Shown piece by piece: positions 3,701 to 40,121 of a stretch of DNA of 64,000 bases. The notes under the pieces are model-generated. The model was not told the origin of the DNA. It ran no database searches and worked only from the letters and a program-made list of their open reading frames with translations. The first letter of the stretch is position 1, and every line of letters begins with the position of its first letter. The translations under genes were made by a program, and so were the position numbers. Origin of the DNA: Pristiophorus japonicus (Eukaryota); assembly GCF_044704955.1 (NCBI RefSeq), contig NW_027252026.1:186001-250000 (forward strand), given 5' to 3'.

Positions 3701-5711
3701 AGACATGCGGCGTGATGTCTCAGTGATAGGCATCAGCCATGATGCGATGCTCAGGAAGCTGTTGCCTGCAGATACGCTGGATTTGAAAAAGGCCATCGCG
3801 ACTGCCCAGGTATGCATGACAACAGATGAGAATTTGAGGCAGATATCGACGAGTTGGAGTTCCATGGCAAGTACTGTACACAAGAGGGCGTTGTCTTCAG
3901 GCAGAATTGCTTCCCCGAAACCTGCCGCTGCTCAGAGTCCGCCAACTGGTTCGATCCAGATTTCACCCTGTTGGTGATGTGGGGACAATTATCGGCCTCA
4001 TCAGTGTCGGTTTATGCAATGGATGTTTAAAAGTGGGGCACCTTCACAGGATGTGTCCACAACGGAGCAAGCATGGTGCGGCTCACCACGTGGTGGATGA
4101 GGATCAGTTCAGTGATGGCCCGGATACACAACCCGAGGAGGAAGTGAATGGACTGTATTCGTTCCTGAGCAAGAGCCAGCCGAATAGTGGTTAATGTGAA
4201 GCTGCATGGCGTGCGTGTATCAATGGAGCTGGACACGGGTGTGAGCCAGTCGATAATGAGCCAAAGGACATTCGACAAGCTGTGGGACACTAAGGCTGCG
4301 AAACCAAAGCTGAGTCCAGTCAATGCCAGGTTGTGTACTTGCACTAAGGAACTCATACCTGTGCTCGGCAATGCAGCAATCGAGGTGTCATATGATGGTG
4401 TGGTTCACGAGCTACCATTATGGATCATCCCAGGTCATTATCCAACGCTGTTCGGCAGGAATTCACTCGAGAAAATCAAGCTGAATTGGAATGATGTCAA
4501 GATGTTGTCCTGGGTAGATGATACTTAGTGTGCTCAAGAATTGAAAAAGTTTCCTTCTTTGTTTGAACCGGGCATTGGTAATTTTACAGATTCACCTGGA
4601 CTCGAATGCAAGGCCTGCCTATCACAAAGCTCGGTCTGTTCCGTACATGATGAGGGAGAAGGTTGAAATCGAGCTTGACAGACTCCAGCATGAAGGGATC
4701 ATATCACCGGTCAAGTTTAACGAGTGGGCCAGTCCCATTGTTCCTGTGTTGAAGAGTGATGGCATTGTCAGGATTTGTGGAGACAACAAGGTTACGATTA
4801 ACCGATTTTCAAAACAGGATCAGTATCCATTACCGAGGGCTGATGACCTGTTCGCCATGCTAGCTGGTGGAAAGTCGTCCACGAAACTGGATCTGACATC
4901 GGCCTATATGACCCAGGAACTTGTCACCACTTCGAAGAAACTCACCTGCATCAACACCCATAAAGGACTGTTCGTCTACAACAGGTGTCCTTTTGGGATT
5001 TGTTCAGTTGCAGCCATATTTCAGAGGACTGTGGAGAGTTTACTGAAGTCCGTTCCTAGGAAAGATATTTCTTGTCGTAGTAGATGCATATTCTAAGTTG
5101 TTATTTCGTCTTCCAGCACGTCTACAGCTAACATTGAGAGCCTTCGTATCATGTTTGCTACTCATGGTTTGCCTGACATTGTTGTGAGCGACAATGGATC
5201 TTGCTTCTCAAGTCTTGAGTTCCAGGAGTTCATGAAACTCAATGACATCAGACATGTGAGATCAGCTCCTTCAAGCCTGCTTCTAATGGTCAAGCAGAGC
5301 GTGCCATTCAAATGATCAAGCAAAGTATGAAACATGTAACTCAGGGCTCACTGCAGAGATGGTTGCCATGTATATTGCTCAGTTACAGGTCAAGACTTCA
5401 TACACTTACTGGGGTTCCTCCTGCTGAACTACTGATGAAGAGAAATCTCAAGACCAGGCTTTTTCTTCATCCTGATTTGAATGATCATGTTGAAAACAGA
5501 CGTCAAAGTCAGCAATGGTGTCATGATCGTGTTGCCATGTCACGTGACATCTCGGTCAACGATCCGGTTTATGTACTGAACTATGGTCAAGGTCCAAAGT
5601 GGATCGCCAGCACTGTTACAGCCAAGGAGGATAACAGAGTGTTTATTGTCATGCTCAAGAATGGGCAAACATGCAGGAAACACCTTGACCAGGTTAAACT
5701 GCGGCACACGG

Positions 5712-8700
5712 ATGAGGTCCTACGAAACGAAGTTAAGGAGCTCGGAGCTAAATTAAAAAGTAGGACCTCAAAAGTAGTAATCTCGGGATTGCTACCAGTG
5801 CCACGTGATAGTCAGAGTAGGAATCGCAGGATAGCGCAGATGAATACGTGGCTTGAGCAGTGGTGCAGCAGGGAGGGATTCAAATTCCTGGGGCATTGGA
5901 ACCGGTTCTGGGGGAGGTGGGACCAGTACAAACCGGACGGTCTGCACCTGGGCAGGACCGGAACCAATGTCCTAGGGGGAGTGTTTGCTAGTGCTGTTGG
6001 GGAGGATTTAAACTAATATGGCAGGGGGATGGGAACCAATGCAGGGAGACAGAGGGAAACAAAAAGGAGGCAAAAGCAAAAGACAGAAAGGAAAAGTGGA
6101 GGGCAGAGAAACCCAAGGCAAAGAACAAAAAGGGCCACTGTACAGCAAAATTCTAAAAGGACAAAGGGTGTTAAAAAAAACAAGCCTGAAGGCTTTGTGT
6201 CTTAATGCAAGGAGTATCCGCAATAAGGTGGATGAATTAACTGTGCAAATAGATGTTAACAAATATGATGTGATTGGGATTACGGAGACGTGGCTCCAGG
6301 ATGATCAGGGCTGGGAACTCAACATCCAGGGGTATTCAACATTCAGGAAAGATAGAATAAAAGGAAAAGGAGGTGGGGTAGCATTGATGGTTAAGGAGCA
6401 AATTAAGGCAATAGTTCGGAAGGACATTAGCTTGGATGATGTGGAATCTATATGGGTAGAGCTGCAGAATACCAAAGGGCAAAAAACGTTAGTGGGAGTT
6501 GTGTACAGACCTCCAAACAGTAGTAGTGATGTTGGGGAGGGCATCAAACATGAAATTAGGGGTGCGTGCAATAAAGGTGCAGCAGTTATAATGGGTGACT
6601 GTAATATGCACATAGATTGGGCTAACCAAACTGGAAGCAATACGGTGGAGGAGGATTTCCTGGAGTGCATAAGGGATGGTTTTCTAGACCAATATGTCGA
6701 GGAACCAACTAGGGGGGAGGCCATCTTAGACTGGGTGTTGTGTAATGAGAGAGGATTAATTAGCAATCTCGTTGTGCGAGGCCCCTTGGGGAAGAGTGAC
6801 CATAATATGGTGGTATTCTGCATTAGGATGGCGAATGAAAGAGTTAATTCAGAGACCATGGTCCAGAACTTAAAGAAGGGTAACTTTGAAGGTATGAGGC
6901 GTGAGTTGGCTAGGATAGATTGGCGAATGATACTGAAGGGGTTGACTGTGGATGGGCAATGGCAGACATTTAGAGACCGCATGGATGAACTACAACAATT
7001 GTACATTCCTGTCTGGCGTAAAAATAAAAAAGGGAAGGTGGCTCAACCGTGGCTATCAAGGGAAATCAGGGATAGCATTAAAGCCAAGGAAGTGGCATAC
7101 AAATTGGCCAGAAATAGCACTGAACCCGGGGACTGGGAGAAATTTAGAACTCAGCAGAGGAGGACAAAGGGTTTGATTAGGGCAGGGAAAATGGAGTACG
7201 AGAAGAAGCTTGCAGGGAACATTAAGACGGATTGCAAAAGTTTCTATAGATATGCAAAGAGAAAAAGGTTAGTAAAGACAAACGTAGGTCCCCTGCAGTC
7301 AGAATCAGGGGAAGTCATAACGGGGAACAAAGAAATGGCGGACCAATTGAACAAGTACTTTGGTTCGGTATTCACTGAGGAGGACACAAACAACCTTCCG
7401 GATATAAAAGGGGTCGGAGGGTCTAGTAAGGAGGAAGAACTGATGGAAATCCTTATTAGTCGGGAAACTGTGTTGGGGATATTGATGGGATTGAAGGCCG
7501 ATAAATCCCCAGGGCCTGATGGACTGCATCCCAGAGTACTTAAGGAGGTGGCCTTGGAAATAGTGGATGCATTGACAGTCATTTTCCAACATTCCATTGA
7601 CTCTGGATCAGTTACTATGGAGTGGAGGGTAGCCAATGTCACCCCACTTTTTAAAAAAGGAGGGAGAGAGAAAACAGAGAATTATAGACCGGTCAGCCTG
7701 ACATCGGTAGTGGGTAAAATGATGGAATCAATTATTAAGGATGTCATAGCAGTGCATTTGGAAAGAGGTAATATGATAGGTCCAAGTCAGCATGGATTTG
7801 TGAAAGGGAAATCATGCTTGACAAATCTTCTGGAATTTTTTGAGGATGTTTCCAGTAGAGTGGACAAGGGAGAACCAGTTGATGTGGTATATTTGGACTT
7901 TCAGAAGGCGTTCGACAAGGTCCCACACAAGAGATTAATGTGCAAAGTTAAAGCACATGGGATTCGGGGTAGTGTGCTGACATGGATTGAGAACTGGTTG
8001 TCAGACAGGAAGCAAAGAGTAGGAGTAAATGGGGACTGTTCAGAATGGCAGGCAGTGACTAGTGAGGTACCACAAGGTTCTGTGCTTGGGCCCCAGCTGT
8101 TTACATTGTACATTAATGATTTAGACGAGGGGATTAAATGTAGTATCTCCAAATTTGCGGATGACACTAAGTTGGGTGGCAGTGTGAGCTGCGAGGAGGA
8201 TGCTATGAGGCTGCAGAGCGACTTGGATAGGTTAGGTGAGTGGGCAAATGCATGGCAGATGAAATATGATGTTGATAAATGTGAGGTTATCCACTTTGGT
8301 GGTAAAAACAGAGAGACAGACTATTATCTGAATGGTGACAGATTAGGAAAAGGGGAGGTGCAAAGAGACCTGGGTGTCATGGTACATCAGTCATTGAAGG
8401 TTGGCATGCAGGTACAGCAGGCTGTTAAGAAAGCAAATGGCATGTTGGCCTTCATAGCGAGGGGATTTGAGTACAGGGGCAGGGAGGTGTTGCTACAATT
8501 GTACAGGGCCTTGGTGAGGCCACACCTGGAGTATTGTGTACAGTTTTGGTCTCCTAACCTGAGGAAGAACATTCTTGCTATTGAGGGAGTGCAGCGAAGG
8601 TTCACCAGACTGATTCCCGGGATGGCGGGACTGACCTATCAAGAAAGACTGGATCAACTGGGCTTGTATTCACTGGAGTTCAGAAGAATGAGAGGGGACC

Positions 8701-9090
8701 TCATAGAAACGTTTAAAATTCTGACGGGGTTAGACAGGTTAGATGCAGGAAGAATGTTCCCAATGTTGGGGAAGTCCAGAACCAGGGGACACAGTCTAAG
8801 GATAAGGGGGAAGCCATTTAGGACCGAGACGAGGAGGAATTTCTTCTCCCAGAGAGTGGTGAACCTGTGGAATTCTCTACCACAGAAAGTTGTTGAGGCC
8901 AATTCACTAAATATATTCAAAAAGGAGTTAGATGAAGTCCTTACTACTAGGGGAATCAAGGGGTATGGTGAGAAAGCAGGAATGGGGTACTGAAGTTTCA
9001 TGTTCAGCCATGAACTCATTGAATGGCGGTGCAGGCTTGAAGGGCCGAATGGCCTACTCCTGCACTTATTTTCTATGTTTCTATGTTGCT
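5712..9090 (+). mobile_element. Young CR1 LINE (ORF1 esterase C-terminus + ORF2 + 3' tail)
   Basis: SGNH-esterase C-terminus (DGLHL), full ORF2 and a (tttctatg)n tail. The host Gypsy reads cacacggatga|actggaagcg across the insertion. Confidence 0.95.
6018..8993 (+). CDS. CR1 ORF2: APE endonuclease + reverse transcriptase, uninterrupted 991 aa
   Basis: LNARSI, ITETW, GGGV, YRPP, SDH, YRPVSLTS, QGSVLGP and FADD motifs; GDCN replaces the usual GDFN. Confidence 0.9.
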   Translation: MAGGWEPMQGDRGKQKGGKSKRQKGKVEGRETQGKEQKGPLYSKILKGQRVLKKTSLKALCLNARSIRNKVDELTVQIDVNKYDVIGITETWLQDDQGWELNIQGYSTFRKDRIKGKGGGVALMVKEQIKAIVRKDISLDDVESIWVELQNTKGQKTLVGVVYRPPNSSSDVGEGIKHEIRGACNKGAAVIMGDCNMHIDWANQTGSNTVEEDFLECIRDGFLDQYVEEPTRGEAILDWVLCNERGLISNLVVRGPLGKSDHNMVVFCIRMANERVNSETMVQNLKKGNFEGMRRELARIDWRMILKGLTVDGQWQTFRDRMDELQQLYIPVWRKNKKGKVAQPWLSREIRDSIKAKEVAYKLARNSTEPGDWEKFRTQQRRTKGLIRAGKMEYEKKLAGNIKTDCKSFYRYAKRKRLVKTNVGPLQSESGEVITGNKEMADQLNKYFGSVFTEEDTNNLPDIKGVGGSSKEEELMEILISRETVLGILMGLKADKSPGPDGLHPRVLKEVALEIVDALTVIFQHSIDSGSVTMEWRVANVTPLFKKGGREKTENYRPVSLTSVVGKMMESIIKDVIAVHLERGNMIGPSQHGFVKGKSCLTNLLEFFEDVSSRVDKGEPVDVVYLDFQKAFDKVPHKRLMCKVKAHGIRGSVLTWIENWLSDRKQRVGVNGDCSEWQAVTSEVPQGSVLGPQLFTLYINDLDEGIKCSISKFADDTKLGGSVSCEEDAMRLQSDLDRLGEWANAWQMKYDVDKCEVIHFGGKNRETDYYLNGDRLGKGEVQRDLGVMVHQSLKVGMQVQQAVKKANGMLAFIARGFEYRGREVLLQLYRALVRPHLEYCVQFWSPNLRKNILAIEGVQRRFTRLIPGMAGLTYQERLDQLGLYSLEFRRMRGDLIETFKILTGLDRLDAGRMFPMLGKSRTRGHSLRIRGKPFRTETRRNFFSQRVVNLWNSLPQKVVEANSLNIFKKELDEVLTTRGIKGYGEKAGMGY

Positions 9091-18648: not shown

Positions 18649-19227
18649 TGAGAATGCATACTGAACATGGATATTAAATGTATACAGACATTTAAGTCGA
18701 GAAGTTGAGAACGTGGGAATTATATATGGACAGTATAAGCTAACAAAGAATTCATGGAGGAATAGCCATGACATCTCAGACTCGAGACTGCGAAATGTTA
18801 CAACACTAACACATATTGAAACAAAACACACAGCTTGCAGAAAAACCTCAAGGTCTTATTAAATCATGTTATTAACCTGAAACATTAACAGAAGGTCTTT
18901 GTTTAAAATCAGACCATACTTAGGTCGGCTTATGAGTGGACAAAGGGAAAGAGGGATCAAAAGGGATAGGCTGAACTAGGATGTCACTCTAGCCCTATCT
19001 TGTTATCTTTTACCGAAAATGTATAACCGTTGTCCCTTTACAATGTCACGTCACTTTGTCCGTAGGAAGTGAGTGCGTTCTATCAGAGTTGCATTCCTTC
19101 TGTCTGATAAGGTCCCTGATCGGGATTTGCTTTTTAAATAAAAGCTTGCTTTGTTTAAAGCACAATCGGTATTCGACTCAGTGATTTCATTGAACCAGAT
19201 TGAGGGAAAATAATCCAAAAATCAACA
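18649..19227 (+). repeat. 5' LTR of endogenous retrovirus
   Basis: Near-identical to 26693-27255 (about a dozen substitutions plus a 7-bp indel by eye), with AATAAA and a CA end. The first ~45 nt align poorly, so the start is approximate. Confidence 0.9.
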
Positions 19228-19229
19228 TT

Positions 19230-19247
19230 TGGTGTCAGAAGTGGGAT
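19230..19247 (+). promoter_or_regulatory. PBS complementary to tRNA-Leu
   Basis: TGGTGTCAGAAGTGGGAT is the 18-nt complement of the vertebrate tRNA-Leu(CAA) 3' end. Confidence 0.88.
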
Positions 19248-21295
19248 CTCAATGGACGACTGCTGAAAACTTGCGAATTAAGAGCCAGACTAGCCTTGGA
19301 CGAGACGAGGGGAAAGTGGCCACTGGAGTAAGTATACTTTCAATACTGCTCCAGTTTCCCCCGGTTTCAAAAGTCTGAGGAAAGTTTAGCCACTCGCTGG
19401 TTCTCAGGTAGTGTCTGAACGAGATCCAGGACAATCTGGTGAATACCTTTCAAACTTAGAATAGGGATAGAGATAGGGAAATTGCGCGGTGACGCAAACC
19501 AAGCGGCGACTCGGAAAGATAGGTTAGAAGAGGTAAGTCTGCCTGGGTTCAAGGCCCAGAGCCTGCCTGGGTTCGAGGCCCAGTGTCTGTGTGGGTTCGA
19601 GGCCCAAGTAAAACCGCGCGGCAACGCGGAGAGAGAGAGAGAATCGCGCGAACCGCGTAGGGAAACGCGGAGGTTAGGGAATTACGTAAAATTAAGCCGC
19701 GGGACTGCGCGGGACTGTGTAAATTTTAAATTGTATTTACGCCAGGTACGGCGTCAATCTTGTACATCACTTGGTCCACCTAGACTCTGGGTAAGATAAC
19801 TGAAACCACCACGGGGCGACGTGGAGACAATCAGGACTAATTAGGACCCTGATCCAACGTGCGGTGACCAGGATGGGTAATTTAGATAAAACTACGAATT
19901 CCCTGAAAGGTCATGGATCCAAAAATAGAGCCGGCCAAAACAATTAATAGGAAAGAAGAAAGACTCTTGTGAACGTCTGTTTTAAATGAGAAATGCTTGT
20001 GTGATTTTTACTGTGGAAAAGAAAGCCGGGGAGTTGTGGTTTGTTTTAGCTCCACCCACTTTTTCAAACAGAATGAAAGTTTTTTTAACCCTTCGTAGTG
20101 TTGTCCTGTATGTGGGAAGTTTAAGAGTGTGAGCCTTATTGAATTACGTATATTCGGATGATAAGTTATGAAGCCAGGAAATGCACAAAGGATAGGTTTG
20201 TTGAGTAAAAAAAGAAAAAATACATGGTCCCGGTGGTTAAAAAAGGATTTGACATGCTCACTTACTTGTCGAAAGAAAACATGCAATGATTGATTACATT
20301 ACAAAGTTTGAATCGGGATTTTGAGATATTCAGAGAAGGCACAGCAAAACAACTGAGATGGATTCAAAAGGATTCAAAAAAAATATATGATATTAAATCT
20401 GCAGTTTAGAAGAAATAGTATAACACGACCTTGAGGCTGGAACAATTGAGATAACGAAAAGCAGTCCACAGCCTACGTGCCAGACTTCCCTCTAGTTATG
20501 GAAAAGATGAAAAAAAAGACGTAATGTACTAAATAGGTGCTGAAAAAAAAATGTTCTGAGATTTTAAATTATGAGAAAAGTTCCATTGCAGTCTAAAAAA
20601 AAATGCATCACTCCTGTCGAGTTGGCAGAAAAACTCCATTAAATTAGGGCTTTCATTGACAGAAGGAGGACATATTAAAAACTGTCGACGTCTTAAAGAA
20701 AGAGTGCACGCACAAGAAATGCACTCAGAATTCCACTGGGACCTCTGAGAAAGGTATCGATAGACTACGTAGTTAAAATGGTTGGCTTTGCATTCACTGA
20801 GGCTGATGACGAAATTGAATTTCAGTAAACAAATAGTTATTAAAAATGTGTGGTCTCGTTTTAAATCAATTAAAAAAATATCTTTGGTGAGTACTTGAAT
20901 AAGAAGTTAAAAAATATTGGAGTTTAATCAAATGCTGCCTTTCCTGATGAAAAGATTTTTTTTTCAGATGGTTACGCGAAGTCACGTAATGACATCAGGT
21001 CTTCTTACAAACCTGTAAAGGAGTTAACCCTTTCCATTGACAGCTGTTTCATACTGAACATTATCAATTTGGATTTCTTAATAGAAAAAAGACTCACCTA
21101 ACAGAGGAATGGTGCGATAGTCAGAATAAAAATAAAAACAGAACTAGCTTATGTAATAATACTTGCCTGATACAATAAAGAAATAGATACTCAAACAAAA
21201 CAAATTGAAGAGTTAAAAGGCTAAGATAAATAAGCTGAAAGGGATCCACAAACCCAACTTAACCCTGACCTCCGATTTCACGGAGTGACCTCGAC

Positions 21296-22170
21296 ATGCA
21301 TGGATATAATGCAGAATCAAGGGACCTGTGGGCCCTGGTAAAGCAAACCCTGAGCCCAACTGAGCAAGCCCGATTTCTAACTCACCTAGGATGTGCTACT
21401 CATGATGCATTGTTGGTTGCTCACCCTAACGATGTCCAGGATCGCCTAAACACTAATGCTCTCACCACGACCCTTCAGAAGCCCATCAGTATGGCCGCAG
21501 TATTAGAAACTAAACCCAAACGAGAAGAAACTGCCGATGAATTCATGGAAAGTTTTATTGAAATATACGGAAGTCAATCAGGAGATAATGCCTTCAGGGC
21601 AGGAGAGGATTCTCCTCAATTCTGCGCTATCCTACTTCAGTGCCTGCCCTATTCGGTTGCTCACGCTCTCCGGACAAATAATATGAATTGGGCAGATAAC
21701 AGTAAAGACCAGATGGAGAGGGCGGTTAAATATTATTGGCAGGAAAAGAAAGGAGAGGGGGGAGGTGCGCCCCCAACCCGGGTCAAGACTGAATACGTGA
21801 CGAGAAAGGAAGAGCCGCCTCGGGTGGAAGGACCAAAACCCGACCCAAGGGGATACCAGATGGAACCGCAGTGTTGTGTGCAGGGTTGGTGGATAAACAG
21901 GGATACGGTTATATCAAACACCCAAATGGCCCGAGCCCTGCTAATTACGGACTGCCCTACGGGGCCTGGTATGGAAAGAGGTTGGGGCTGGGAGATGGAT
22001 GCTTTATTTGTGGGCAAGAAGGACATTGGAATAGAAATTGTCCCTCCCGTCAGCACGAAAAAGGAAGAGGAGGAAGAGGAGGGGGGCAAGGGGGGAGAGG
22101 ACGGGGATCTTGCACTAACTTCTCCCAGAACAACCCCTTTGGCCAACCGTCCCCCGATTATTCGTATTGA
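21296..22170 (+). pseudogene. gag: ERV gag (capsid C-terminus and nucleocapsid), frameshifted
   Basis: MHR-like KPKREETADEFMESF, one CCHC knuckle and an RGG-rich tail; split over two frames. Confidence 0.85.
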
Positions 22171-24987
22171 CTATGTAGCTTGGTTGTGCAGGGACCCTCC
22201 CCGGATGATGAACCGATGATATTGTTAAAAATTCAGAATGAGTGGCAACCCTTCTTGATAGATACGGGAGCCTTCATTTCTTCTGTACAATCAAAGCTGA
22301 AACTCCCCGCCTTCACTGAAACACAGGGACTGTCAGGATTCCTGGGACAAGTCTCTCCATTCCCGATGTCAGAACCGGTTAAAATGGGTTACCAGGAAGA
22401 ATCGGTGGAACATCGATTTGTTATCACAACCAATCTGGACTGTAACTTGATGGCTAGAGACCTCCTCTGCAAATTCCAGTTGCATTTGGAGTGTGGAGAT
22501 GATGGGATTATTGTAAAACAAGGAACCCTTAAGCGGCAGTATTATACCACTAGAACCCCTCAGTGGTGGTCTCTGGACCTGCCGCAGGCACCCTATCACG
22601 TGACCCTAGCACACGATCCCAGTGGAAAGAATCAGGACCTGCAGAACTTTTATCAGGATCACGAAGGGGAAGTGAAGGAAATTCTATTAAGGGCTAGAGT
22701 GACTGGACCGGAAGGGAAGGCAGATTTTGTGGAAATGGACAGCCCCCAACGGTGGCACCACATATTACTCGTGAAGTATTACCTCCCCACCACGCTAAAG
22801 ATTTGGGAGTTATGGTGCGCTAGGCTATAGACGAGGCTGACCCTACCAGCCGGGATGTGCAAATTGTAAAACATGGCCGAACAGTCCAATTCCACGGGGA
22901 CCCCGAGATGGTCTTAACGACTCTGCAGCATCATACTGGCTCTGACATACCTGACTATGTGGATCCTCATTGTGGGAAGAGGACCCCTCCCAAGTGGGTT
23001 ATACTCCCATTGATCCGATTGAGATCCCAGTGCAGGGCAATGTGGACTGGCCCTCTATCCGACAGTACCCACTGAAAACACAGGCAATACCGAGTATTCA
23101 CCGAGCTCTGGAGGCTAGCCGAGTTGAACCAATTTGCCAGTTTCCAGTCCCTAGCATGGCTAAACAAATGCGCCAGTGGTTGGGGATGATCAATTACTGC
23201 AGATCCTGGATCCCTAATGTTGCCCTGATGACTAAGCACCTCACCCCGTATACAAATAAGGAAGGCAGCTTTGAAATAGAAACCGCAGACGTCCAAGCCT
23301 TTAAGGAACTAAAGACAGCCCTGCTGCAAGCTCCAGCTTTGGTCCGGCCCCTCTATGACCTTTCAACTGTATTGTACAATCCTGAAAGACTGTGCTACCG
23401 TTGTCTTAACACCTCTCACTCCGTAGCTGCCCTCCTGGGCCAGCTGCAGACTCAACACCTTACCATGGCCAGGCAAAGCAGATATGAGATCTACCTACTA
23501 AACAATCCTTAGCTGACCTTTCGGCACTGTACTGCAATTAATCCGGCCTGTTTTCTTACTGAGCCGCCCCAAGATGAGGAAGAACCCAGTCATGACTGTT
23601 TATCTTTAATTCAAGAGGCCACATCAGTCAGGGGAGATTTAGTTGATGTACCAATGGAAGATCCAGACTGTATTATGTATGTTGACGGAAGTTCTTCTAT
23701 TAATCCAGAAGGTACACGAATCTCAGGATACGCCATAGTAAACCAGGAGAATCAGGTCTTGAAATCTGCCGCCTTTGAAACCGCCTATTCTGCCCAACAA
23801 GCTGAACTATTCACCCTCACCCGAGCCTGTCTCTTGGCCAAAGACCTCAAAGTCAATATCTATACCGACTCTAGGTATGCCTTTGGGGTGGCCCATGATT
23901 TCGGACAATTATGGAAAAATAGGGGATTCCTAACCTCACAGGGGAATGAGATATTCCATAAGCAACTAGTATCTGATTTGTTGCAAGCCCTCATGCTCCC
24001 CAAGCACATTGCCGTTGTTAAATGTACCGCCCACACCACCGGAAAATCCCCGGTTGATATCGGGAACCACTGTGCTGACAAAGAAGCTAAACAGGCCTCT
24101 CGTGACCAACAGATGGTAGTGTCCAAAATGATGAGTCAGACTAAAAAATCCTGCGAAGGATAAGTTAGCCTCGGAAAAACCAATGCCAACCATCCAAGAT
24201 GTTATTAAAGCACAGGAGGACGCTCCTGAAAAAGAAAAACTGTTGTGGAAAAATTATGGATGTACTTATGACAATGTTTCTAAACTCTGGACCACTCCCG
24301 CGGAACAGACTTGCATGTCTGATGAGTTGGCTCTATGGGTTATTGAATGTATGCATTTTTGCTACTCATTGTGGAGCAAGGACCACGAGTGACACACTTT
24401 TGGCTACTTGGTGGCATCCTAGACTCCAGGCGCTCGCCCAGAACATCAGTAGTCGTTGCCTGGTTTGCCAGCAACATAATCCAGGGAAGGAAGTCCCCTG
24501 TGATTGGGGTAAAATGCCCCTACCCGAAGGTCCCTTTGAGACATTTCAGTTGGACTACATTGAGTTGCAAAAAGTTCAGTGTTACAAATATGTGTTAGTA
24601 ATAGTAGATGTGTTTAGCAGGTGGATTGAAGCCTACCCTACCCTGGACAATAAGGCTCAAACTGTTGTTAAGGTGTTAATGAGGGAAATTGTTCCTAGAT
24701 ATGGTATCTCAGCTCGACTGATGACCACCTATGTTCTTTCTCTGACTCAGGCTCTGCGACTAGCTCACAACCAGGTTCGAGAGGCTCACCTCGATCTCCC
24801 AGTTTTACCCAAATCGTCCCTCATGGTACCTGGGAAGTATGTCCTGATTAAGAGGTGGATTCGGAAGGGATTGGAGCCACAATGGGAGGGTCCTTTTCAG
24901 GTGTTATTCACTACCCCCACTGCAGCCAAGGTTGAGGGGAGAAGTGCCTGGGTTCACCTGCACCACTGCAAGCTCACCACCCCCTAA
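22171..24987 (+). pseudogene. pol: ERV pro-pol (protease, 2H phosphoesterase, deleted RT, RNase H, partial integrase)
   Basis: DTGA; HVT (22597) and HIT (22761); RT jumps from IRQYPL to the thumb region (WLGMINYCRSWIPN) with no YxDD; the integrase core is cut at ~24718. Confidence 0.9.
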
Positions 24988-25357
24988 CAAACCTATTTTA
25001 CTGGTTATTCTAACTCCTGTTTCTGTTCCAGACTTCCTCTTCTCCATAGCTGAACAAGGCCGTTGACATCCTAATTGTAACGTGGACCAGTTTGAACTTT
25101 TACCCGTAGTGATAGACAGCCAGCTACACCGACGGTGACCTAAGAAGAGAGACGGGAGAACCGAACTCTTTTAATCAGCAAAATAATTGGACTATTTATC
25201 TGAATCCTGAGCCATAAGATGAAACTGTGTCTGTATGCCACAGTCTGTATAATATGACAGTTTCGGCGCATGGGAGGGGAGACAGAGAAGAGAGCTCCAT
25301 GTAAACACCTTTTTGTACATGTCTTATGTTTATGCGCAATATGGGAACTTTTCTTGA

Positions 25358-26656
25358 TGCTGGGTGTGCTCACATATCCCTATACATTCCAAAGGGGGTA
25401 TTCCTTTACGCCCCGTTCCACTGACCCTAACTGAGACTGTCAAGTGGCTTCTGAGCCAGACTAGCATGAGCGGAGGGGGGCCAATGCAAATACGAGAGAG
25501 GAAAGGCGGGTCAAAAGAGGGGTCACAGAGATCAGGAGGCGTATTATACCGTTACCACATGAATGACCACGGGGAGGTCACCAAGTGGGAGAGTGCTGGA
25601 GACCCCATTAGTCAGATGTCCCAGGGATGGTACCAACCAATCTACGACTGTGGAAAGGAACCCCCATTCTTAGCTCTGACCAATACCTCGGGGATTGGGA
25701 GGCCAACCGGGGACATATGTCGAACCCGAAATGACACCAGTAACAAGGGACATATCATAGGGTACAGCAAATGCCCACACAATCTCAACATCACCACAGG
25801 TGCACGAGTCACCATCCTCTCTCACCTTCCGAGTAAAACAGGTGGAGGTTTGTGGGCCCAGTCCTGGGACCCGGAAGCAATATATCAGAAAGCAGCTTTT
25901 AACGGCACGTATTTCGTGTACGGTCATAAGGCATATCCTTGGTTGCCCAGGCGATGGACAGGGTCCTGTTATCTGGGATATGTGGTGCCATTTGTGCGGC
26001 AAGTACGTACCCTGGCGGAAGCACATGCCTCCAGCCGATACAAGCGAGCCATCACCCCCGTCGACAAGTTCTTTGGGGTCATGATGTTCCCAATCAGGAT
26101 AAGACGTCTCACGGATGAAGTACAGAACCTAGAGACGATATTGGAACAGATAGCTAACAATACTGCTGAAGCTCTGGAGGGCATCATAGCTGAAATGGTA
26201 GCAATAAGGACCGTAGCATTACAAAACCGAATGGCCCTCGATTACCTGTTAGCTGAGAAAGGGGGAACGTGTGCCCTGATAGGATCTGAATGTTGCACTT
26301 ACATTCCCGATAGTTCAGAAAACATAACCAATCTCGCTGGTCACATAAGAAGGGAGGTGAAGAAGTTATCCACACCAGCAGAAGGATCTAACTGGTTTGA
26401 TGGGCTATCAGATGGATCTTGGAGATCCTATCTAATGCATGGGGCAATTATTCTCATCGTAGTAATAATTGCCTGTTGTTTGATTGTTGGTTGCCTTAAC
26501 CTTTGTTGTAAAGTAATGATGGCAAGGTTAGCAAATCCTCTTGTGGTCAAGGGCTCCCGAGTTATGATCCAACGAACTAAAGAACTAATCGACACTAACA
26601 ACAATATGATTCAGGAAATAGAGTGTGAACGGATGAATGCAATACTCCTAGAATGA
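25358..26656 (+). CDS. env: ERV env (SU-TM), open from CWVC to the C-terminus; signal-peptide region broken by stops
   Basis: CWVC, furin site RYKR, immunosuppressive domain LQNRMALDYLLAEKGG, CX6CC and a hydrophobic TM helix. Confidence 0.9.
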   Translation, partial: CWVCSHIPIHSKGGIPLRPVPLTLTETVKWLLSQTSMSGGGPMQIRERKGGSKEGSQRSGGVLYRYHMNDHGEVTKWESAGDPISQMSQGWYQPIYDCGKEPPFLALTNTSGIGRPTGDICRTRNDTSNKGHIIGYSKCPHNLNITTGARVTILSHLPSKTGGGLWAQSWDPEAIYQKAAFNGTYFVYGHKAYPWLPRRWTGSCYLGYVVPFVRQVRTLAEAHASSRYKRAITPVDKFFGVMMFPIRIRRLTDEVQNLETILEQIANNTAEALEGIIAEMVAIRTVALQNRMALDYLLAEKGGTCALIGSECCTYIPDSSENITNLAGHIRREVKKLSTPAEGSNWFDGLSDGSWRSYLMHGAIILIVVIIACCLIVGCLNLCCKVMMARLANPLVVKGSRVMIQRTKELIDTNNNMIQEIECERMNAILLE

Positions 26657-26692
26657 TCCTAAGTGTTAGCATGGAATGATAAAAGGGGGAAA

Positions 26693-27255
26693 TGTGAATG
26701 TTTAAAAATGTATAAAGTCGAGAAGTTGAGAAAGTGGGAATTATATATGGACAGTATAAGCTAACAAAGAATTCATGGAGGAATAGCCATGACATCTCAG
26801 ACTCGAGACTGCGAAATGTTACAACACTAACACATATTGAAACAAAACCCACAGCTTGCAGAAAAACCTCAAGGTCTTATTAAATCATGTTATTAACCTG
26901 AAACCTGAAACATTAACAGAAGGTCTTTGTTTAAAATCAGACCATACTTAGGTCGGCTTATGAGTGGACAAAGGGAAAGAGGGATCAAAAGGGATAGGCT
27001 GAACTAGGATGTCACTCTAGCCCTATCTTGTTATCTTTTGCCGAAAATGTATAACCGTCGTCCCTTTACAATGTAACGTCACTTTGTCCGTAGGAAGTGA
27101 GTGCGTTCTATCAGAGTTGCATTCCTTCTGTCTGATAAGGTCCCCGATCGGGATTTGCTTTTTAAATAAAAGCTTGCTCTGTTTAAAGCACAATCGGTAT
27201 TTGACTCAGTGATTTCACTGAACCAGATTGAGGGAAAAGAATCCAGAAATCAACA
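26693..27255 (+). repeat. 3' LTR of endogenous retrovirus
   Basis: Starts with TG after the polypurine tract, ends in CAACA, matches the 5' LTR. Confidence 0.92.
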
Positions 27256-29067
27256 CACGTATCATACTCGAGGGCACACAGGTGGACAGGCTGTGCCTGT
27301 CCTAGTCACGGTTTTGGTTGGGAGGGGGCAGATGGGATTTCGGTACCAATGGCGGTGGCTCCTTTCCAGGGCCATCTAACATGGCTCGGAGCGCAGTTAA
27401 AAAGGTCTCAAACGAGTGGGGAGGGACTGGCTTATCTGTCCCGGTCTTTTGGGCAGGGGCTGGAGAATTCTTTCCTGCGCTATTCTTCCAAGGATTTCTT
27501 CAATCCTTTCTCCAGTGCCCACTCTTTCCACACCCAAAGCAGGTACGTTTTGTATCGGAGGGGTTGCCCCCTTGTGGTGCCATTCCCTCTTGTCTTGGTT
27601 AGGTCAGATTTCGTGAACCTTTCCCTTTTGTGGGGGCTCTTCTGTCCCTCTGCCGTTTCTGTAAGCTAGGGTCAGCTGCCTAAGCACTCTCTATTCTGTG
27701 GCTTGGGGGTCTCTGGGGTCGAACCAGGCCTCAGCCTTGGTTCTTATTCTGGGTAAACTGTTAGATACTAGGCTTCGGAGCCAGTGGGCTAACTTGTCCG
27801 GGTTGAGGTCTCCTCCACAGGCCACAGTCGGTCTGCGAAAGCCTGTGGGGTTTCCCCTGTGAGCTGCACCGTTTACTCTGGAGAAGGGACTCACTTCATG
27901 CAGCCCAGAGCTTCTAAAATGTCTTTCTGGATGGCAGCAAGTGTTTTCTGTCCTCTTTTGCTCTCAGTAGAGAGGGACTGGTACAGTTTGCTGTCGAGAG
28001 ATAGGAGAAGCATCTTTGCCATCTCGGCCTCATTGCACCCATTAATATCCCCTGCCTGTTCCACCTCCACAAAGTGAACTGAGGGGTCTCCCTTTGGAGT
28101 GAGCTTTCCCAGGTGGCTTATCATAGCCCTAAGCTGGTGGGCTGTGTGGGGGACCACAAACTGACTTTCCACGGTCCTGGACCCCCGGCAAGGGTGGGCG
28201 GGCCAAACCTCTGTTGCCGGACCGGGCACATTGGCCCTGGTTCTGGCTCTTCCTGTTCTGGCTCGCCTCCCTCTCCTCCCTGCTGCCAGACCGAGCTGAA
28301 ACTCGGTGCCACAGGTGCTGGTGGTTCACTATCCCTGTTCACCCTGCAACTCGTTCGCCCCTCCTGCTGCTTCACCGGTGTAGTCACCGGTGCTACAGGT
28401 AGTGGCCAGGTCGTTTCTTCCTTCTCTTCCAGGTTTACCTGGGGCGTACCCGGGCTTATTAAACATACCATGCCTTTTGCTTTGGACAGAGCAAGGGTTA
28501 AACTCTTGATTTGCTGCTGGCAGGGACCGTGGTCTCCCGATTCAAACCCATTAGTGCTAGCTACTTTATACGCTGCTTGCACATCTTTTAAATTTTCCTG
28601 GAGCTCTTTTACTTGTAGGGTGAGGCGAGTGCTTTCCTCCCTCAGTGACTTTTCATTACTTTTGGCCTCGGTAACCTGAAATTGAAAATAGTCCTGACTG
28701 TTCTTCAACCTTTCCATTAGCTGGGTCTTTTCCTGTTTTAGCTTACGGAGTTCTTCTGCAATAGCCCTTTCCTGATAGTTCTCTGCACATTCCCATAACT
28801 CTGCCTGTAGTGTCTCATTGGTTTTATCCAGGAGTTGGACCTGTCGCTGCAGACAGACCAATCAGATTGCCTTCTCTACTGATTCTTTGTGATCCTTGCT
28901 TGCTGTCCACTGGGCTGCAGCGTCGGCTGGACGCTCAGCGCACAACAGACCAAGCACCCATTCCTTAGTGACATTCACTTTCTTGTACACATAGGAGGAA
29001 ATCCTCTCTTCCATCTTGGTTCTTTCCCCCAAACCAGCACGCTCCGCATCACAGCCCTTGTACCAGA

Positions 29068-29085
29068 GTCCTGCCGCGGTCGCCA
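29068..29085 (-). promoter_or_regulatory. PBS complementary to tRNA-Arg(TCG)
   Basis: TGGCGACCGCGGCAGGAC(TC) is complementary to the GAGTCCTGCCGCGGTCGCCA end of vertebrate tRNA-Arg(TCG). Confidence 0.85.
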
Positions 29086-29308
29086 TTTTGTAAGGGGTGG
29101 TCCCGGGCTTCAGGTTCACCTCTGACCGACTTGAGTGGTTCGAATGGCTCCCACTCCCTTGGGTTCTACACTCTGGGTTTATTTGGGGAATGTGACAAAA
29201 TGCAAAGTACAACTGGTTTGGTGCAAAGAACTTTGACTTTATTACAGACAAGAAAGTACAAGGTCAGCCTTATAATCACTGTAATAAAGAACAATATATT
29301 ACACATTC

Positions 29309-32300
29309 ATAGAAACATAGAAACATAGAAAATAGGTGCAGGGGCAGGCCATTCAGCCCTTCTAGCCTGCACCGCCATTCAATGAGTTCATAGAAACATA
29401 GAAACACAGAAACATTGAAAATAGGTGCAGGAGTAGGCCATTCGGCCCTTCTAGCCTGCACCGCCATTCAATGAGTTCATGGCTGAACATTCAACTTCAG
29501 TACCCCATTCCTGCTTTCTCGCCATACCCCTTGATCCCCCTAGCAGTAAGGACCTCATCGAACTCCTTTTTGAATATATTTAGTGAATTGGCCTCAACAA
29601 CTTTCTGTGGTAGAGAATTCCACAGGTTCACCACTCTCTGGGTGAAGAAGTTCCTCCGCATCTCGGTCCTAAATGGCTTACCCCTTATCCTTAGACTGTG
29701 ACCCCTGGTTCTGGACTTCCCCAACATTGGGAACATTCTTCCTGCATCTAACCTGTCTAACCCCGTCAGAATTTTATATGTTTCTATGAGGTCCCCTCTC
29801 ATTCTTCTGAACTCCAGTGAATACAAGCCCAGTTGATCCAGTCTTTCTTGATAGGTCAGTCCCGCCATCCCGGGAATCAGTCTGGTGAACCTTCGCTGCA
29901 CTCCCTCAATAGCAAGAATGTCCTTCCTCAGGTTAGGAGACCAAAACTGTACACAATACTCCAGGTGTGGCCTCACCAATGCCCTGTACAACTGTAGCAA
30001 CACCTCCCTGCCCCTGTACTCAAATCCCCTTGCTATGAAGGCCAACATGCCATTTGCTTTCTTAACCGCCTGCTGCACCTGCATGCCAACCTTCAATGAC
30101 TGATGTACCATGACACCCAGGTCTCTTTGCACCTCCCCTTTTCCTAATCTGTCACCATTCAGATAATAGTCTGTCTCTCTGTTTTTACCACCAAAGTGGA
30201 TAACCTCACATTTATCCACATTATACTTCATCTGCCATGCATTTGCCCACTCACCTAACCTATCCAAGTCGCTCTGCAGCCTCACAGCATCCTCCTCGCA
30301 GCTCACACTGCCACCCAACTTAGTGTCATCCGCAAATTTGGAGATACTACATTTAATCCCCTCATCTAAATCATTAATGTACAGTGTAAACAGCTGGGGC
30401 CCCAGCACAGAACCTTGCGGTACCCCACTAGTCACTGCCTGCCATTCTGAAAAGTACCCATTTACTCCTACTCTTTGCTTCCTGTCTGACAACCAGTTCT
30501 CAATCCATGTCAGTACACTACCCCCAATCCCATGTGCTCTAACTTTGCACATCAATCTCTTGTGTGGGACCTTGTCGAACGCCTTCTGAAAGTCCAAATA
30601 TACCACATCAACTGGTTCTCCCTTATCCACTCTACTGGAAACATCCTCAAAAAATTCCAGAAGATTTGTCAAGCATGATTTCCCTTTCACAAATCCATGC
30701 TGACTTGGACCTATCATGTCACCTCTTTCCAAATGCACTGCTATGACATCCTTAATAATTGATTCCATCATTTTACCCACTACCGATGTCAGGCTGACCG
30801 GTCTATAATTCCCTGTTTTCTCTCTCCCTCCTTTTTTAAAAAGTGGGGTTACATTGGCTACCCTCCACTCCATAGGAACTGATCCAGAGTCAATGGAATG
30901 TTGGAAAATGACTGTCAACGCATCCACTATTTCCAAGGCCACCTCCTTAAGTACTCTGGGATGCAGTCCATCAGGCCCTGGGGATTTATCGGCCTTCAAT
31001 CCCATCAATTTCCCCAACACAATTTCCCGGCTAATAAGGATTTCCCTCAGTTCCTCCTCCTTACTAGACCCCCCGACCCCTTTTATAACCGGAAGGTTGT
31101 TCGTGTCCTCCTTCGTGAATACCGAACCAAAGTACTTGTTCAATTGGTCCGCCATTTCTTTGTTCCCCGTTATGACTTCCCCTGATTCTGACTGCAGGGG
31201 ACCTACATTTGTCTTTACTAACCTTTTTCTCTTTACATATCTATAGAAACTTTTGCAATCCGTCTTAATGTTCCCTGCAAGCTTCTTCTCATATTCCATT
31301 TTCCCTGCCCTAATCAAACCCTTTGTCCTCCTCTGCTGAGTTCTAAATTTCTCCCAGTCCCCAGGTTCGCTGCTATTTCTGGCCAATTTGTATGCCACTT
31401 CCTTGGCTTTAATACTATCCCTGATTTCCCTTGATAGCCACGGTTGAGCCACCTTCCCTTTTTTATTTCTATGCCAGACAGGAATGTACAATTGTTGTAG
31501 TTCATCCATGCGGTCTCTAAATGTCTGCCATTGCCCATCCACAGTCAACCCCTTAAGTATCATTCGCCAATCCATCTCAGCCAATTCACGCCTCATACCT
31601 TCAAAGTTAGCCTTCTTTAAGTTCTGGACCATGGTCTCTGAATTAACTGTTTCATTCTCCATCCTAATGCAGAATTCCACCATATTATGGTCACTCTTCC
31701 CCAAGGGGCCTCGCACAACGAGATTGCTAATTAATCCTTTCTCATTACATAACACCCAGTCTAAGATGGCCTCCCCCCTAGTTGGTTCCTCGACATATTG
31801 GTCTAAAAAACCATCCCTTATGCACTCCAGGAAATCCTCCTCCACCGTATTGCTTCCAGTTTGGCTCGCCCAATCTATGTGCATATTAAAGTCAACTATT
31901 ATAACTGCTACACCTTTATTGCACGCACCCCTAATTTCCTGTTTGATGCCCTCCCCAACATCACTACTACTGTTTGGAGGTCTGTACACAACTCCCACTA
32001 ACGTTTTTTGCCCTTTGGTGTTCTGCAGCTCTACCCATAAAGATTCCACATCATCCAAGCTAATGTCTTTCCTAACTATTGCATTAATCTCCTCTTTAAC
32101 CAGCAATGCTACCCCACCTCCTTTTCCTTTTATTCTATCCTTCCTGAATGTTGAATACCCCTGGATGTTGAGTTCCCAGCCCTGATCATCCTGGAGCCAC
32201 GTCTCCGTAATCCCAATCACATCATATTTGTGAACGTCTATTTGCACAGTTAATTCATCCAATTTATTGCGGATACTCCTTGCATTAAGACACAAAGCCT

Positions 32301-32858
32301 TCAGGCTTGTTTTTTTAACACCCTTTGTCCTTTTAGAATTTTGCTGTACAGTGGCCCTTTTTGTTCTTTGCCTTGGGTTTCTCTGCCCTCCACTTTTCCT
32401 CATCTCCTTTCTGTCTTTTGCTTTTGCCTCCTTTTTGTCTCCCTCTGTCTCTCTGCATTGGTTCCCATCCCCCTGCCATATTAGTTTAACTCCTCTCCAA
32501 CAGCACTAGCAAACACTCCCCCTAGGACATTGGTTCCGGTCCTGCCCAGGTGCAGACCATCCGGTTTGTACTGGTCCCACCTCCCCCAGAACCGGTTCTA
32601 ATGCCCCAGGAATTTGAATCCCTCCCTGCTGCACCACTGCTCAAGCCACGTATTCATCTGCGCTATCCTGCGATTCCTACTCTGACTAGCACGTGGCACT
32701 GGTAGCAATCCCGAGATTACTACTTTTGAGGTCCTACTTTTTAATTTAGCTCCTAGCTCCTTAAATTCGTTTCGTAGGACCTCATCCCTTTTTTTACCTA
32801 TGTCGTTGGTACCAATGTGCACCACGACAACTGGCTGTTCTCCCTCCCATTTCAGAAT
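29309..32858 (-). mobile_element. Young CR1 LINE (ORF1 SGNH esterase part + ORF2 + duplicated 3' end)
   Basis: VVVHIGTNDIG esterase motif, 968-aa ORF2 and a (tttctatg)n tail; CATTCA on both flanks. Confidence 0.95.
29497..32403 (-). CDS. CR1 ORF2 endonuclease-RT, uninterrupted 968 aa
   Basis: All APE and RT motifs are present; nearly identical to 6018-8993. Confidence 0.92.
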   Translation of the reverse strand: MRKSGGQRNPRQRTKRATVQQNSKRTKGVKKTSLKALCLNARSIRNKLDELTVQIDVHKYDVIGITETWLQDDQGWELNIQGYSTFRKDRIKGKGGGVALLVKEEINAIVRKDISLDDVESLWVELQNTKGQKTLVGVVYRPPNSSSDVGEGIKQEIRGACNKGVAVIIVDFNMHIDWASQTGSNTVEEDFLECIRDGFLDQYVEEPTRGEAILDWVLCNEKGLISNLVVRGPLGKSDHNMVEFCIRMENETVNSETMVQNLKKANFEGMRRELAEMDWRMILKGLTVDGQWQTFRDRMDELQQLYIPVWHRNKKGKVAQPWLSREIRDSIKAKEVAYKLARNSSEPGDWEKFRTQQRRTKGLIRAGKMEYEKKLAGNIKTDCKSFYRYVKRKRLVKTNVGPLQSESGEVITGNKEMADQLNKYFGSVFTKEDTNNLPVIKGVGGSSKEEELREILISREIVLGKLMGLKADKSPGPDGLHPRVLKEVALEIVDALTVIFQHSIDSGSVPMEWRVANVTPLFKKGGREKTGNYRPVSLTSVVGKMMESIIKDVIAVHLERGDMIGPSQHGFVKGKSCLTNLLEFFEDVSSRVDKGEPVDVVYLDFQKAFDKVPHKRLMCKVRAHGIGGSVLTWIENWLSDRKQRVGVNGYFSEWQAVTSGVPQGSVLGPQLFTLYINDLDEGIKCSISKFADDTKLGGSVSCEEDAVRLQSDLDRLGEWANAWQMKYNVDKCEVIHFGGKNRETDYYLNGDRLGKGEVQRDLGVMVHQSLKVGMQVQQAVKKANGMLAFIARGFEYRGREVLLQLYRALVRPHLEYCVQFWSPNLRKDILAIEGVQRRFTRLIPGMAGLTYQERLDQLGLYSLEFRRMRGDLIETYKILTGLDRLDAGRMFPMLGKSRTRGHSLRIRGKPFRTEMRRNFFTQRVVNLWNSLPQKVVEANSLNIFKKEFDEVLTARGIKGYGEKAGMGY

Positions 32859-37200: not shown

Positions 37201-37604
37201 TCTCACTGATGTCCTCCTTTCGGAAGCGCAGCCTCCTAACGCACATGTTATCGGACAAGTTCAGCTATGATCACTTTTCCCTGTAAATGCGTTGGGTGTA
37301 AGGTCTCCTCCTCTGCACCATTCTGCCAACTATTTGATTGGACACATAATGCTCTTCAATATACCTTCTCCCATCGTCAGTCTGCAGCATGTGATTAGTG
37401 ACCAATACTGGCTGAGAAATTACAGGCCCATCACTATCAATCACTAGAAATGCCCTTCATTTGTCCTCAACAGATACAAATGTGATTAGATGATTGGCAA
37501 GGGTCAAAAAGGCCCTTAAACTCACTCAGAGATTGATTCTCCTCACAAACACTTGAAGCAGCTTTTCAGTACAGATCCTCCGACTGTCGAAAAGGCGTCG
37601 GTAG

Positions 37605-39633
37605 TGCCGAGTATTGCCGAGTATTGCCGAGTGCTGCCGAGTATTGCCGAGTGCTGCCGAGTATTGCCGAGTGCTGCCGAGTATTGCAGAGTACTGCCGA
37701 GTATTACCGAGTACTGCCGAGTATTGCCGAGTATTGCAGAGTACTGCCGAGTATTGCCGAGTATTGCCGAGTATTGCAGAGTTCTGCCGAGTATTGCCGA
37801 GTGCTGCCGAGTATTGCAGAGTACTGCCGAGTATTACCGAGTACTGCCGAGTATTGCCGAGTATTGCAGAGTACTGCCGAGTATTACCGAGTACTGCCGA
37901 GTACTGCCGAGTATTGCCGAGTATTGCAGAGTATTGCAGAGTACTGCCGAGTACTGCCGAGTACTGCCGACTACTGCTGAGTCCTGCCGAGTCCTGCCGA
38001 GTACTGCCAAGTACTGCCAAGTACTGCCGAGTATTGCCGAGTACTGCCGACTACTGCCGAGTACTGCCGAGTATTGCCGAGTACTGCCGAGTACTGCCGA
38101 GTATTTCCGAGTACTGCCGAGTATTGCCGAGTACTGCCGAGTACTGCCGAGTATTGCCGAGTACTGCCGAGTACTGCCGAGTATTGCCGAGTACTGCCGA
38201 GTACTGCCGAGTATTTCCGAGTACTGCCGAGTATTGTCGAGTACTGCCGAGTACTGCCAAGTATTGCCGAGTACTGCCGACTACTGCCGAGTATTGCCGA
38301 GTATTTCCGAGTACTGCCGAGTATTGCCGAGTACTGCCGAGTACTGCCGAGTATTGCCGAGTACTGCCGAGTATTGCCGAGTACTGCCGAGTACTGCCGA
38401 GTATTGCCGAGTACTGCCGAGTACTGCCGAGTATTTCCGAGTATTTCCGAGTATTGCCGAGTACTGCCGAGTATTGCCGAGTATTGCCGAGTACTGCCGA
38501 GTACTGCCGAGTATTGCCGAGTATTGCTGAGTCCTGCCGAGTATTGCCGAGTATTTCCGAGTACTGCCGAGTATTTCCGAGTACTGCCGAGTATTTCCGA
38601 GTACTGCCGAGTACTGCCGAGTATTTCCGAGTACTGCCGAGTACTGCCGAGTACTGCCGAGTATTGCCGAGTATTGCCGAGTACTGCTGAGTATTGCCGA
38701 GTACTGCCGAGTATTGCTGAGTACTGCCGAGTATTGCCGAGTATTGCCGAGTACTGCCGAGTATTGCAGAGTACTGCCGAGTATTGCAGAGTACTGCCGA
38801 GTATTGCCGAGTACTGCCGAGTATTGCAGAGTATTGCCGAGTATTGCCGAGTACTGCCGAGTATTGCCGAGTACTGCCGAGTATTGCAGAGTACTGCCGA
38901 GTATTGCCGAGTACTGCCGAGTATTGCCAAGTACTGCCGATGACTGCCGAGTATTGCCGAGTACTGCCGACTACTGCCGAGTATTGCCGAGTATTTCCGA
39001 GTACTGCCGAGTATTGCCGAGTACTGCCGAGTATTGCCGAGTACTGCCGAGTATTGCCGAGTACTGCCGAGTACTGCCGAGTATTTCCGAGTACTGCCGA
39101 GTATTGCCGAGTACTGCCGAGTATTGCCGAGTACTGCCGACTACTGCCGAGTACTGCCGAGTACTGCCGAGTATTGCCGAGTATTTCCGAGTACTGCCGA
39201 GTACTGCCGAGTATTGCCGAGTACTGCCGAGTACTGCCGAGTATTTCCGAGTACTGCCGAGTCTTGCCGAGTACTGCCGAGTATTTCCGAGTACTGCCGA
39301 GTATTGCCGAGTACTGCCGAGTATTGCCGAGTACTGCCGAGTACTGCCGAGTATTGCCGAGTACTGCCGAGTATTGCCGAGTATTGCCGAGTACTGCCGA
39401 GTATTGCCGAGTACTGCCGAGTATTGCCGAGTATTGCCGAGTACTGCCGAGTATTGCCGAGTACTGCCGAGTACTGCCGAGTATTTCCGAGTACTGCCGA
39501 GTATTGGCGAGTACTGCCGAGTATTGCCGAGTACTGCCGAGTATTGCCGAGTACTGCCGAGTACTGCCGAGTATTGCCGAGTACTGCCGAGTACTGGCGA
39601 GTACTGCCGAGTACTGCCGAGTACTGCCGAGTA
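37605..39633. repeat. 10-bp tandem satellite (GAGTA(C/T)TGCC)n, ~200 copies
   Basis: Strict 10-nt periodicity over about 2 kb, with recurrent variants (gtatttccga, gtattgcaga, ctactgccga). Confidence 0.98.
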
Positions 39634-40121
39634 GCACCGACTTAAGGTCAGGTGAGTGCAGCTTTTTTTCAGCGACTTTTTCGACCAGCGACCATTTCGG
39701 CGAAGTGTGGGCAAAATGCCGGAAGTTGCGGTGGCGATAAATGGGCGATAATCGGGCACAAGTTTCCAGTTTCAGCACTATTCTCGGCCTGGCACGCAGA
39801 TGACGTCATATATTTTTTAAACTTAAGCCGGGCGATGCAGCACATTGATGTGTGCCAAAAGTTTGGCCGGGTGCTAGTTTCCACTTTCTGGCAAAAATGG
39901 GCAATAGCCTGTATCTCAGCATTAAATGGGCGATAAATGGGTGATAAATGGGCGATAAATGGGTGATAAATGGGCGATAAGTGGGCGATAAATGGGCAAT
40001 AAATGGGTGATAAATGGGCGATAAATGGGTGATAAATGGGCGATCAATAGGCGTAAATGGGCTATAAGTGGGCGATAAATGGGGGATAAATTGAGCGATG
40101 ATGTGCCGAAAGTCTAGTCCC

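Follow-up and report, generated by a model that had tools for sequence, protein, structure and literature searches.

A CNPase-like 2H domain predicted between protease and reverse transcriptase of a Pristiophorus japonicus endogenous retrovirus family, and its broken copy in a non-autonomous subfamily

2H phosphoesterases encoded by viruses include MHV ns2, the C-terminal domain of rotavirus VP3, Acb1 and the avian poxvirus cGAMP PDE, and fish retroviruses carry such domains as well. [quoted passage not shown] The presence of 2H/CNPase domains in retroviruses of fish is already published, and what is new here is this member. In the literature searched, which consisted mostly of papers outside subscription, we found no functional test of a retroviral 2H domain, and the string ‘retrovir’ is absent from the main text, as far as it is available, of two papers on viral anti-immune 2H enzymes (PMC10835031, PMC11410667). 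On the cellular side, the catalytic chemistry of His230 and His309 of mouse CNPase is set out in the available part of PMC4643303, and mammalian CNPase can stand in for yeast tRNA ligase's CPDase domain, according to the accessible text of PMC5434554. The provirus described here differs from those of walleye and other teleosts in coming from Pristiophorus japonicus, and its copy of the domain is broken.

The window, a stretch of 64,000 nucleotides of P. japonicus contig NW_027252026.1, holds a provirus that spans ~18694–27255 and whose features are collected in Table 1. The provirus is young, with 11 mismatches over 534 aligned bases and one gap between its LTRs. The initial ~20 bases of the 5′ LTR (18660-18694) are without a counterpart in the 3′ LTR, and the provirus shows no evident target-site duplication; one end may therefore have been altered after insertion. 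At the gag-pro-pol junction, TGA-CTA is present in 18 of 21 loci among those fitting the junction pattern, and the gag stop is probably read through, as in gamma- and epsilonretroviruses (available text of PMC3185560). The integrase core is truncated, with Pfam rve aligned over positions 3-62 of 102 only.

Table 1. Features of the provirus (positions in the window)
Feature	Position	Strand	Evidence or remark
5′ LTR (portion alignable to 3′ LTR)	18694..19227	+	LTR-LTR alignment
Primer-binding site, match to 3′ end of a host tRNA-Leu	19230..19247	+	Genome pattern search and ARAGORN
gag remnant, frameshifted, one CCHC knuckle, terminal TGA in frame with pro-pol	21269..22170	+	
Aspartic protease	22207..22488	+	Pfam RVP, E 1.2e-6
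Predicted 2H domain, part 1, first HxT (His 22597), up to inherited frame break near 22745	22537..22745	+	
Predicted 2H domain, second HxT (His 22761), onset of CNPase-type helix, premature stop 22821-22823	22746..22823	+	
Predicted 2H domain, end of final helix and strands	22824..22943	+	Beyond the extent first annotated
Reverse transcriptase (RT) remnant, with loss of the catalytic core near 23100 and a further deletion near 23410	22955..23512	+	blastn against longer natural copy
RNase H	23666..24100	+	Pfam, E 3.8e-24
Integrase remnant: zinc-binding part, truncated core, MLV-type C-terminal domain	24169..24987	+	
Gamma-type env remnant, open over 432 aa, start missing	25358..26656	+	TLV_coat E 3.1e-11
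3′ LTR, polypurine tract just before	26693..27255	+	

An MLV-type RT, an in-frame gag stop, a single CCHC knuckle and a gamma-type env place the provirus among class I (gamma/epsilon-like) ERVs; in a longer natural copy of the element, the top PDB matches of the RT are MLV-type p80 RTs (E 2e-64). The nearest named proteins, from a skate and a shark, have 45-48% identity. The tRNA-His primer that the walleye viruses of the genus Epsilonretrovirus use (available text of PMC3185748) is not what the primer-binding site fits here, as it corresponds to tRNA-Leu; ARAGORN called tRNA-Leu in one of three fetched host matches to the primer-binding-site pattern. We use the label ‘epsilon-like’ on the basis of the common 2H domain and of PMC4422223; the available text of that paper reports epsilon-like ERVs in elephant shark, and the word ‘phosphodiesterase’ does not occur in it. 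The tRNA 3′-end pattern has 498 matches genome-wide, and from 174.39 Mb of G000:C8 (L105) runs a long array of tandem units of ~1.76 kb each, which contains tRNA-Leu genes.

The first-pass annotation of this DNA had proposed a 2H domain at 22552..22823, embedded in Pol between protease and RT, with a frameshift near 22745 separating two motifs whose histidines lie at 22597 and 22761. The position within Pol is upheld, and both histidines are where they were placed: His-Val-Thr (HVTL) follows the RVP match within one ORF and shares the frame of the protease, and His-Ile-Thr (HITR) lies in another frame. The domain itself is present, but its proposed end is a premature stop codon, in whose frame the domain continues to ~22943; likewise the frameshift is real, but it is shared by inheritance with related copies and is not a private lesion. 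As its reading frames stand, the frameshift and the stop prevent the window copy from encoding the enzyme, and on the same two grounds we rejected domestication of this copy by the host. Because His-hydrophobic-Thr/Ser occurs 27 times over the six frames of the provirus internal region, the motif pair alone proves little, and conservation, selection and fold have to carry the proof.

A DNA search of the 5.9-Gb genome gave 1633 candidates, of which 40 were scored and the closest 30 fetched, the window’s own locus among them. Both motifs in one ORF were found in none of these 30; the second motif lies in the other frame in 29, and in the remaining one it was not caught by the pattern. When compared with longer natural copies, the break is a short out-of-frame deletion. 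In those longer copies both histidines, 60 residues apart, share a single stop-free frame in 19 of 20 fetched, and the same is true of 25 of 30 loci found with the skate protein, a group that has two loci in common with the first and contains three pairs without differences across the domain. The RT core, searched by blastn against a longer natural copy, is absent from all 30 of the closest loci; among the 20 longer-type loci it is complete in 17, partly covered in two and absent from one. The same two anchor patterns occur at 344 sites with the window-type spacing versus 40 with the longer spacing. These counts, together with the uniform loss of the RT core, show that the window belongs to a non-autonomous subfamily, which multiplied to hundreds of copies after losing both the 2H domain and the RT core. 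The first-pass annotation had overlooked that the locus belongs to this amplified subfamily, whose members probably obtained the function of the domain, and RT, from helper copies. Two loci are of mixed type: L036 (G000:C1:148825881-148829072) has the window-type 2H break yet keeps the RT core, and L048 (G000:C6:118106202-118109266) has the longer 2H form yet has lost it, which points to deletions acquired step by step or to recombination between subfamilies. Both motifs are also kept in another, more distant ERV family of the same genome (L064, L066, L067, L070), which has 46-48% identity over the domain.

To follow the domain beyond this genome, the 2H domain of a natural open copy (L049) was searched against 1.84 billion representative proteins, giving 23 representative matches at E<=0.001; two of them (P0019 and P0023) are repeat proteins and were discarded as chance. 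Of the 10 matches looked up, six are named: three of these proteins come from two cichlid species, and the others from a catfish, a catshark and a devil ray. Relatives recognizable by sequence are found in teleosts as well as in sharks and rays. In an alignment of 26 sequences, made up of 10 related copies from this genome and 16 proteins (P0002, P0003, P0011, P0012, P0014 and P0024 were excluded as too long), His21, Thr23 and Tyr26 are present in 23 of 23 sequences, His81 in 24 of 26, Thr/Ser83 in 23 of 26 and Gly96 in 25 of 25; the catalytic residues of both motifs are kept in intact members of the family, as the proposal of the first-pass annotation required. In P0014 the first motif was not clearly seen. 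The teleost Pol proteins P0011, P0012 and P0024 have the same two motifs, likewise between protease and RT, but with a longer stretch ahead of the first motif than in the shark-genome copies. P0012 and P0024, both of them cichlid Pol proteins with the 2H domain, are entered at NCBI under wrong names, neuronal calcium sensor 1 and RAD9B.

The open copies also allow selection to be estimated, by pairwise Nei-Gojobori comparison of 16 of 50 loci in groups set by eye. Between subfamilies, dN/dS of the 2H domain is 0.04-0.15 where dS could be computed, with dS near saturation in some pairs, and four bootstrapped between-subfamily pairs give 0.04, 0.09, 0.11 and 0.02 (upper bounds 0.10-0.22). The corresponding values are 0.06-0.12 for the protease and 0.10-0.33 for RT, some of the latter raised by frameshifts. 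These codon comparisons indicate that the 2H domain is under purifying selection as strong as that on protease and RT.

The fold was examined in a natural open copy, for which AlphaFold2 gives a confident model (pLDDT 93.3, pTM 0.85). The 2H phosphoesterase fold that had been proposed is indeed the one predicted, and in the family this predicted two-lobed fold and two His-x-Thr/Ser motifs come together in one polypeptide. Foldseek against the PDB returned 50 matches at E<=0.001 (best E 8.8e-6), and the matches listed consist of CNPase/RICH chains plus a single entry for a fungal RNA kinase (PDB 6u05, E 6.7e-4). In a full structural alignment against 48,161 chains, mouse CNPase ranks first (Z 13.9, rmsd 3.9, 139 aligned), followed by bacterial CPDase (7.5), rotavirus VP3 (6.5), Usb1 (6.3) and Acb1 (6.0), and lower down by MHV ns2 (5.5), penguinpox cGAMP PDE (5.0) and AKAP7/AKAP18 (4.7-4.9); ranks 1-13 of this search are all phosphoesterase or 2H-type entries. 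The closest structure to the model is CNPase; in a member of the AKAP7-derived viral 2′,5′-PDEs (ns2, NS4b, VP3) the closest cellular structure would be AKAP7. Two details of the model and alignment point the same way. A helix is predicted at residues 92-105, after the second motif, where the available text of PMC4643303 describes a helix specific to vertebrate CNPases; and the residue at His+15 is Gly in 24 of 26 aligned sequences and in the host CNPase exon, in agreement with the mouse CNPase numbering H309/G324 in PDB titles.

Among viral structure models the best matches are Q9WHI8 (walleye epidermal hyperplasia virus 1, WEHV-1; E 1.2e-7, TM 0.78), then Q2VF30, probably the polyprotein of a salmon retrovirus, and A4GTG3 (WDSV; E 1.6e-6). 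Acb1 entries of this library appear at E 0.06 or worse. Although Q9WHI8 and A4GTG3 are labelled ‘Envelope polyprotein’, their length suggests that they are Pro-Pol. The likeness of the shark domain to the walleye viruses bears out the tie to fish retroviral polyproteins drawn in the first reading of the sequence.

Sequence-only searches reach less far. Pfam gave no match for the 2H domain or for any of the 26 members (neither PF05881 nor PF08302 was reached), a PDB sequence search returned nothing relevant for the domain, a word-indexed protein search with the first half of the window’s domain returned nothing at E<=0.001, and a profile of the domain against the host CNPase exon was not significant (E 0.45), although it aligned the second motif correctly. 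Language-model neighbours belong to the tRNA-ligase cyclic phosphodiesterase family PF08302 (0.95); when a cichlid homolog served as query of a second Atlas search, the score was only 0.77, at most a lead. As PF05881 and PF08302 have no sequence match here, we call the domain CNPase-like and do not file it as CNPase. With vertebrate CNPase (PDB 2xmi and 1woj; goldfish RICH 2i3e; PF05881) the viral domain has in common the predicted fold, the two HxT motifs, the helix that follows the second of them and the Gly at His+15; it differs in its low identity (12-16%), in its length (~130 versus 210 residues, ~70 shorter), in being embedded in a polyprotein and in being without the N-terminal P-loop domain. 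The fungal tRNA ligase CPDase (PF08302) supplies the top named language-model neighbours as well as the PDB 6u05 match, but the provirus has neither a kinase nor a ligase partner.

Taken with its conservation between protease and RT, the predicted structure suggests that the domain is a Pol-borne 2′,3′-cyclic-phosphate 3′-phosphodiesterase with CNPase-like chemistry, a reading to which we give a probability of roughly 60%. Of the roles put forward in the first-pass annotation, an attack on OAS-RNase L or cGAS-STING signalling is the weaker analogy and processing of RNA or tRNA ends fits better, since the model aligns with CNPase at Z 13.9 and with ns2, VP3, Acb1 and the other anti-immune or AKAP7-type enzymes at 4.7-6.5. 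With the gag stop read through, the domain would be produced within Gag-Pol and would enter the particle, and the protease would probably release it. By analogy with CNPase, one histidine would activate a water molecule and the other would protonate the leaving 3′-oxygen, so that 2′,3′-cyclic ends would be converted to 2′-phosphate and 3′-OH ends. The likeliest substrates would be either the cyclic-phosphate ends that metal-independent RNases of the host leave on primer tRNA or viral RNA, or else free 2′,3′-cyclic nucleotides, in or close to the particle. We know of no case in which a 2′-phosphate end aids priming. A common fold leaves the choice of substrate undecided, and changes of substrate come readily to 2H enzymes (available text of PMC11410667).

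Other targets were weighed as well. The domain could degrade 2′3′-cGAMP or related cyclic dinucleotides and so blunt cGAS-STING signalling, like Acb1 and the avian poxvirus enzymes: it belongs to the same superfamily, members of which have repeatedly been adapted to such a job (available text of PMC11410667), an enzyme borne by the virion would reach the site of the reverse transcripts, and the patchy occurrence of OAS in fish does not weaken the idea. The structural scores of Acb1 and penguinpox cGAMP PDE nevertheless lie far under that of CNPase, the Acb1 entries of the viral library are no better placed, and there would probably be few copies of the enzyme per particle, so that we regard this role as unlikely, if conceivable. 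We hold in equal doubt a more specific scenario, in which an ancient fish retrovirus took the CNPase catalytic domain from its host, whose CNPase is described as an antiviral interferon-stimulated protein, retained it in Pol through sharks, rays and teleosts, and repurposed it as a virion-borne nuclease of cGAMP or another nucleotide alarm; if true, this would be a retroviral second-messenger nuclease with an origin separate from those of ns2, VP3 and Acb1. Destruction of 2-5A by a 2′,5′-phosphodiesterase, which would block OAS-RNase L as ns2 and VP3 do, is improbable. The superfamily is again the same and the host has a possible target, as OAS gave 16 exon matches, 15 of them on one contig and forming at least five exon sets; but Z is 5.5 for ns2, 6.5 for VP3 and 4.7-4.9 for AKAP7, ns2 and VP3 derive from AKAP7-like genes (available text of PMC10835031), an exon-by-exon search of the host for the KEN domain of RNase L found only two KEN loci, both matching IRE1 (weak evidence of a missing RNase L), and the domain persists in teleost elements while some teleosts are without OAS (available text of PMC2852836). 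The OAS-like cluster lies at G000:C8:218.42-218.60 Mb (L093-L096), and a search of the host for AKAP7 gave two single-exon matches.

A role independent of catalysis, in which the domain would bind RNA or Gag or serve as a decoy against host CNP, is slightly less probable still. Host CNPase associates with Gag and keeps primate lentiviruses from assembling (available text of PMC5434554), and P. japonicus has a CNPase gene, but from sharks to teleosts no residues are better kept than the catalytic His and Thr, which points to catalysis. Next to no weight is left for the motifs being a chance pair in a spacer or for the break being a programmed frameshift: the motif type is frequent in the internal region and the break is common to hundreds of copies, but a single frame holds both motifs in nearly all longer copies, the signs of fold and of selection are clear, and the broken type is without bases that longer copies have and without the RT core too. 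On these grounds a programmed ribosomal frameshift was rejected, and we treat the whole alternative as already refuted.

Fish retroviruses keep what is predicted to be an extra enzyme in Pol, under selection on a par with that on protease and RT, and the predicted structure narrows the question to cyclic-phosphate substrates ahead of cGAMP and 2-5A. At 130 residues the domain is compact, well predicted and easy to express. The locus in the window is unremarkable, being a dead member of a subfamily that is non-autonomous.

Several other repeats are present in the window. On the minus strand at 27790-29260, Gag-like open stretches, for which Pfam matches coiled-coil only, belong to an apparent second LTR element that adjoins the 3′ LTR in the opposite orientation. 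Two LINEs, at 29497-32505 (-) and 5246-8993 (+), have an ORF2 with endonuclease and RT that is open over 1002 and 993 aa, respectively; in the latter a GDSL-esterase ORF lies upstream of ORF2, presumably a CR1-type arrangement. At 37450-39800 there is a tandem array of ~200 units with a period of 10 bases and with long open frames on both strands.
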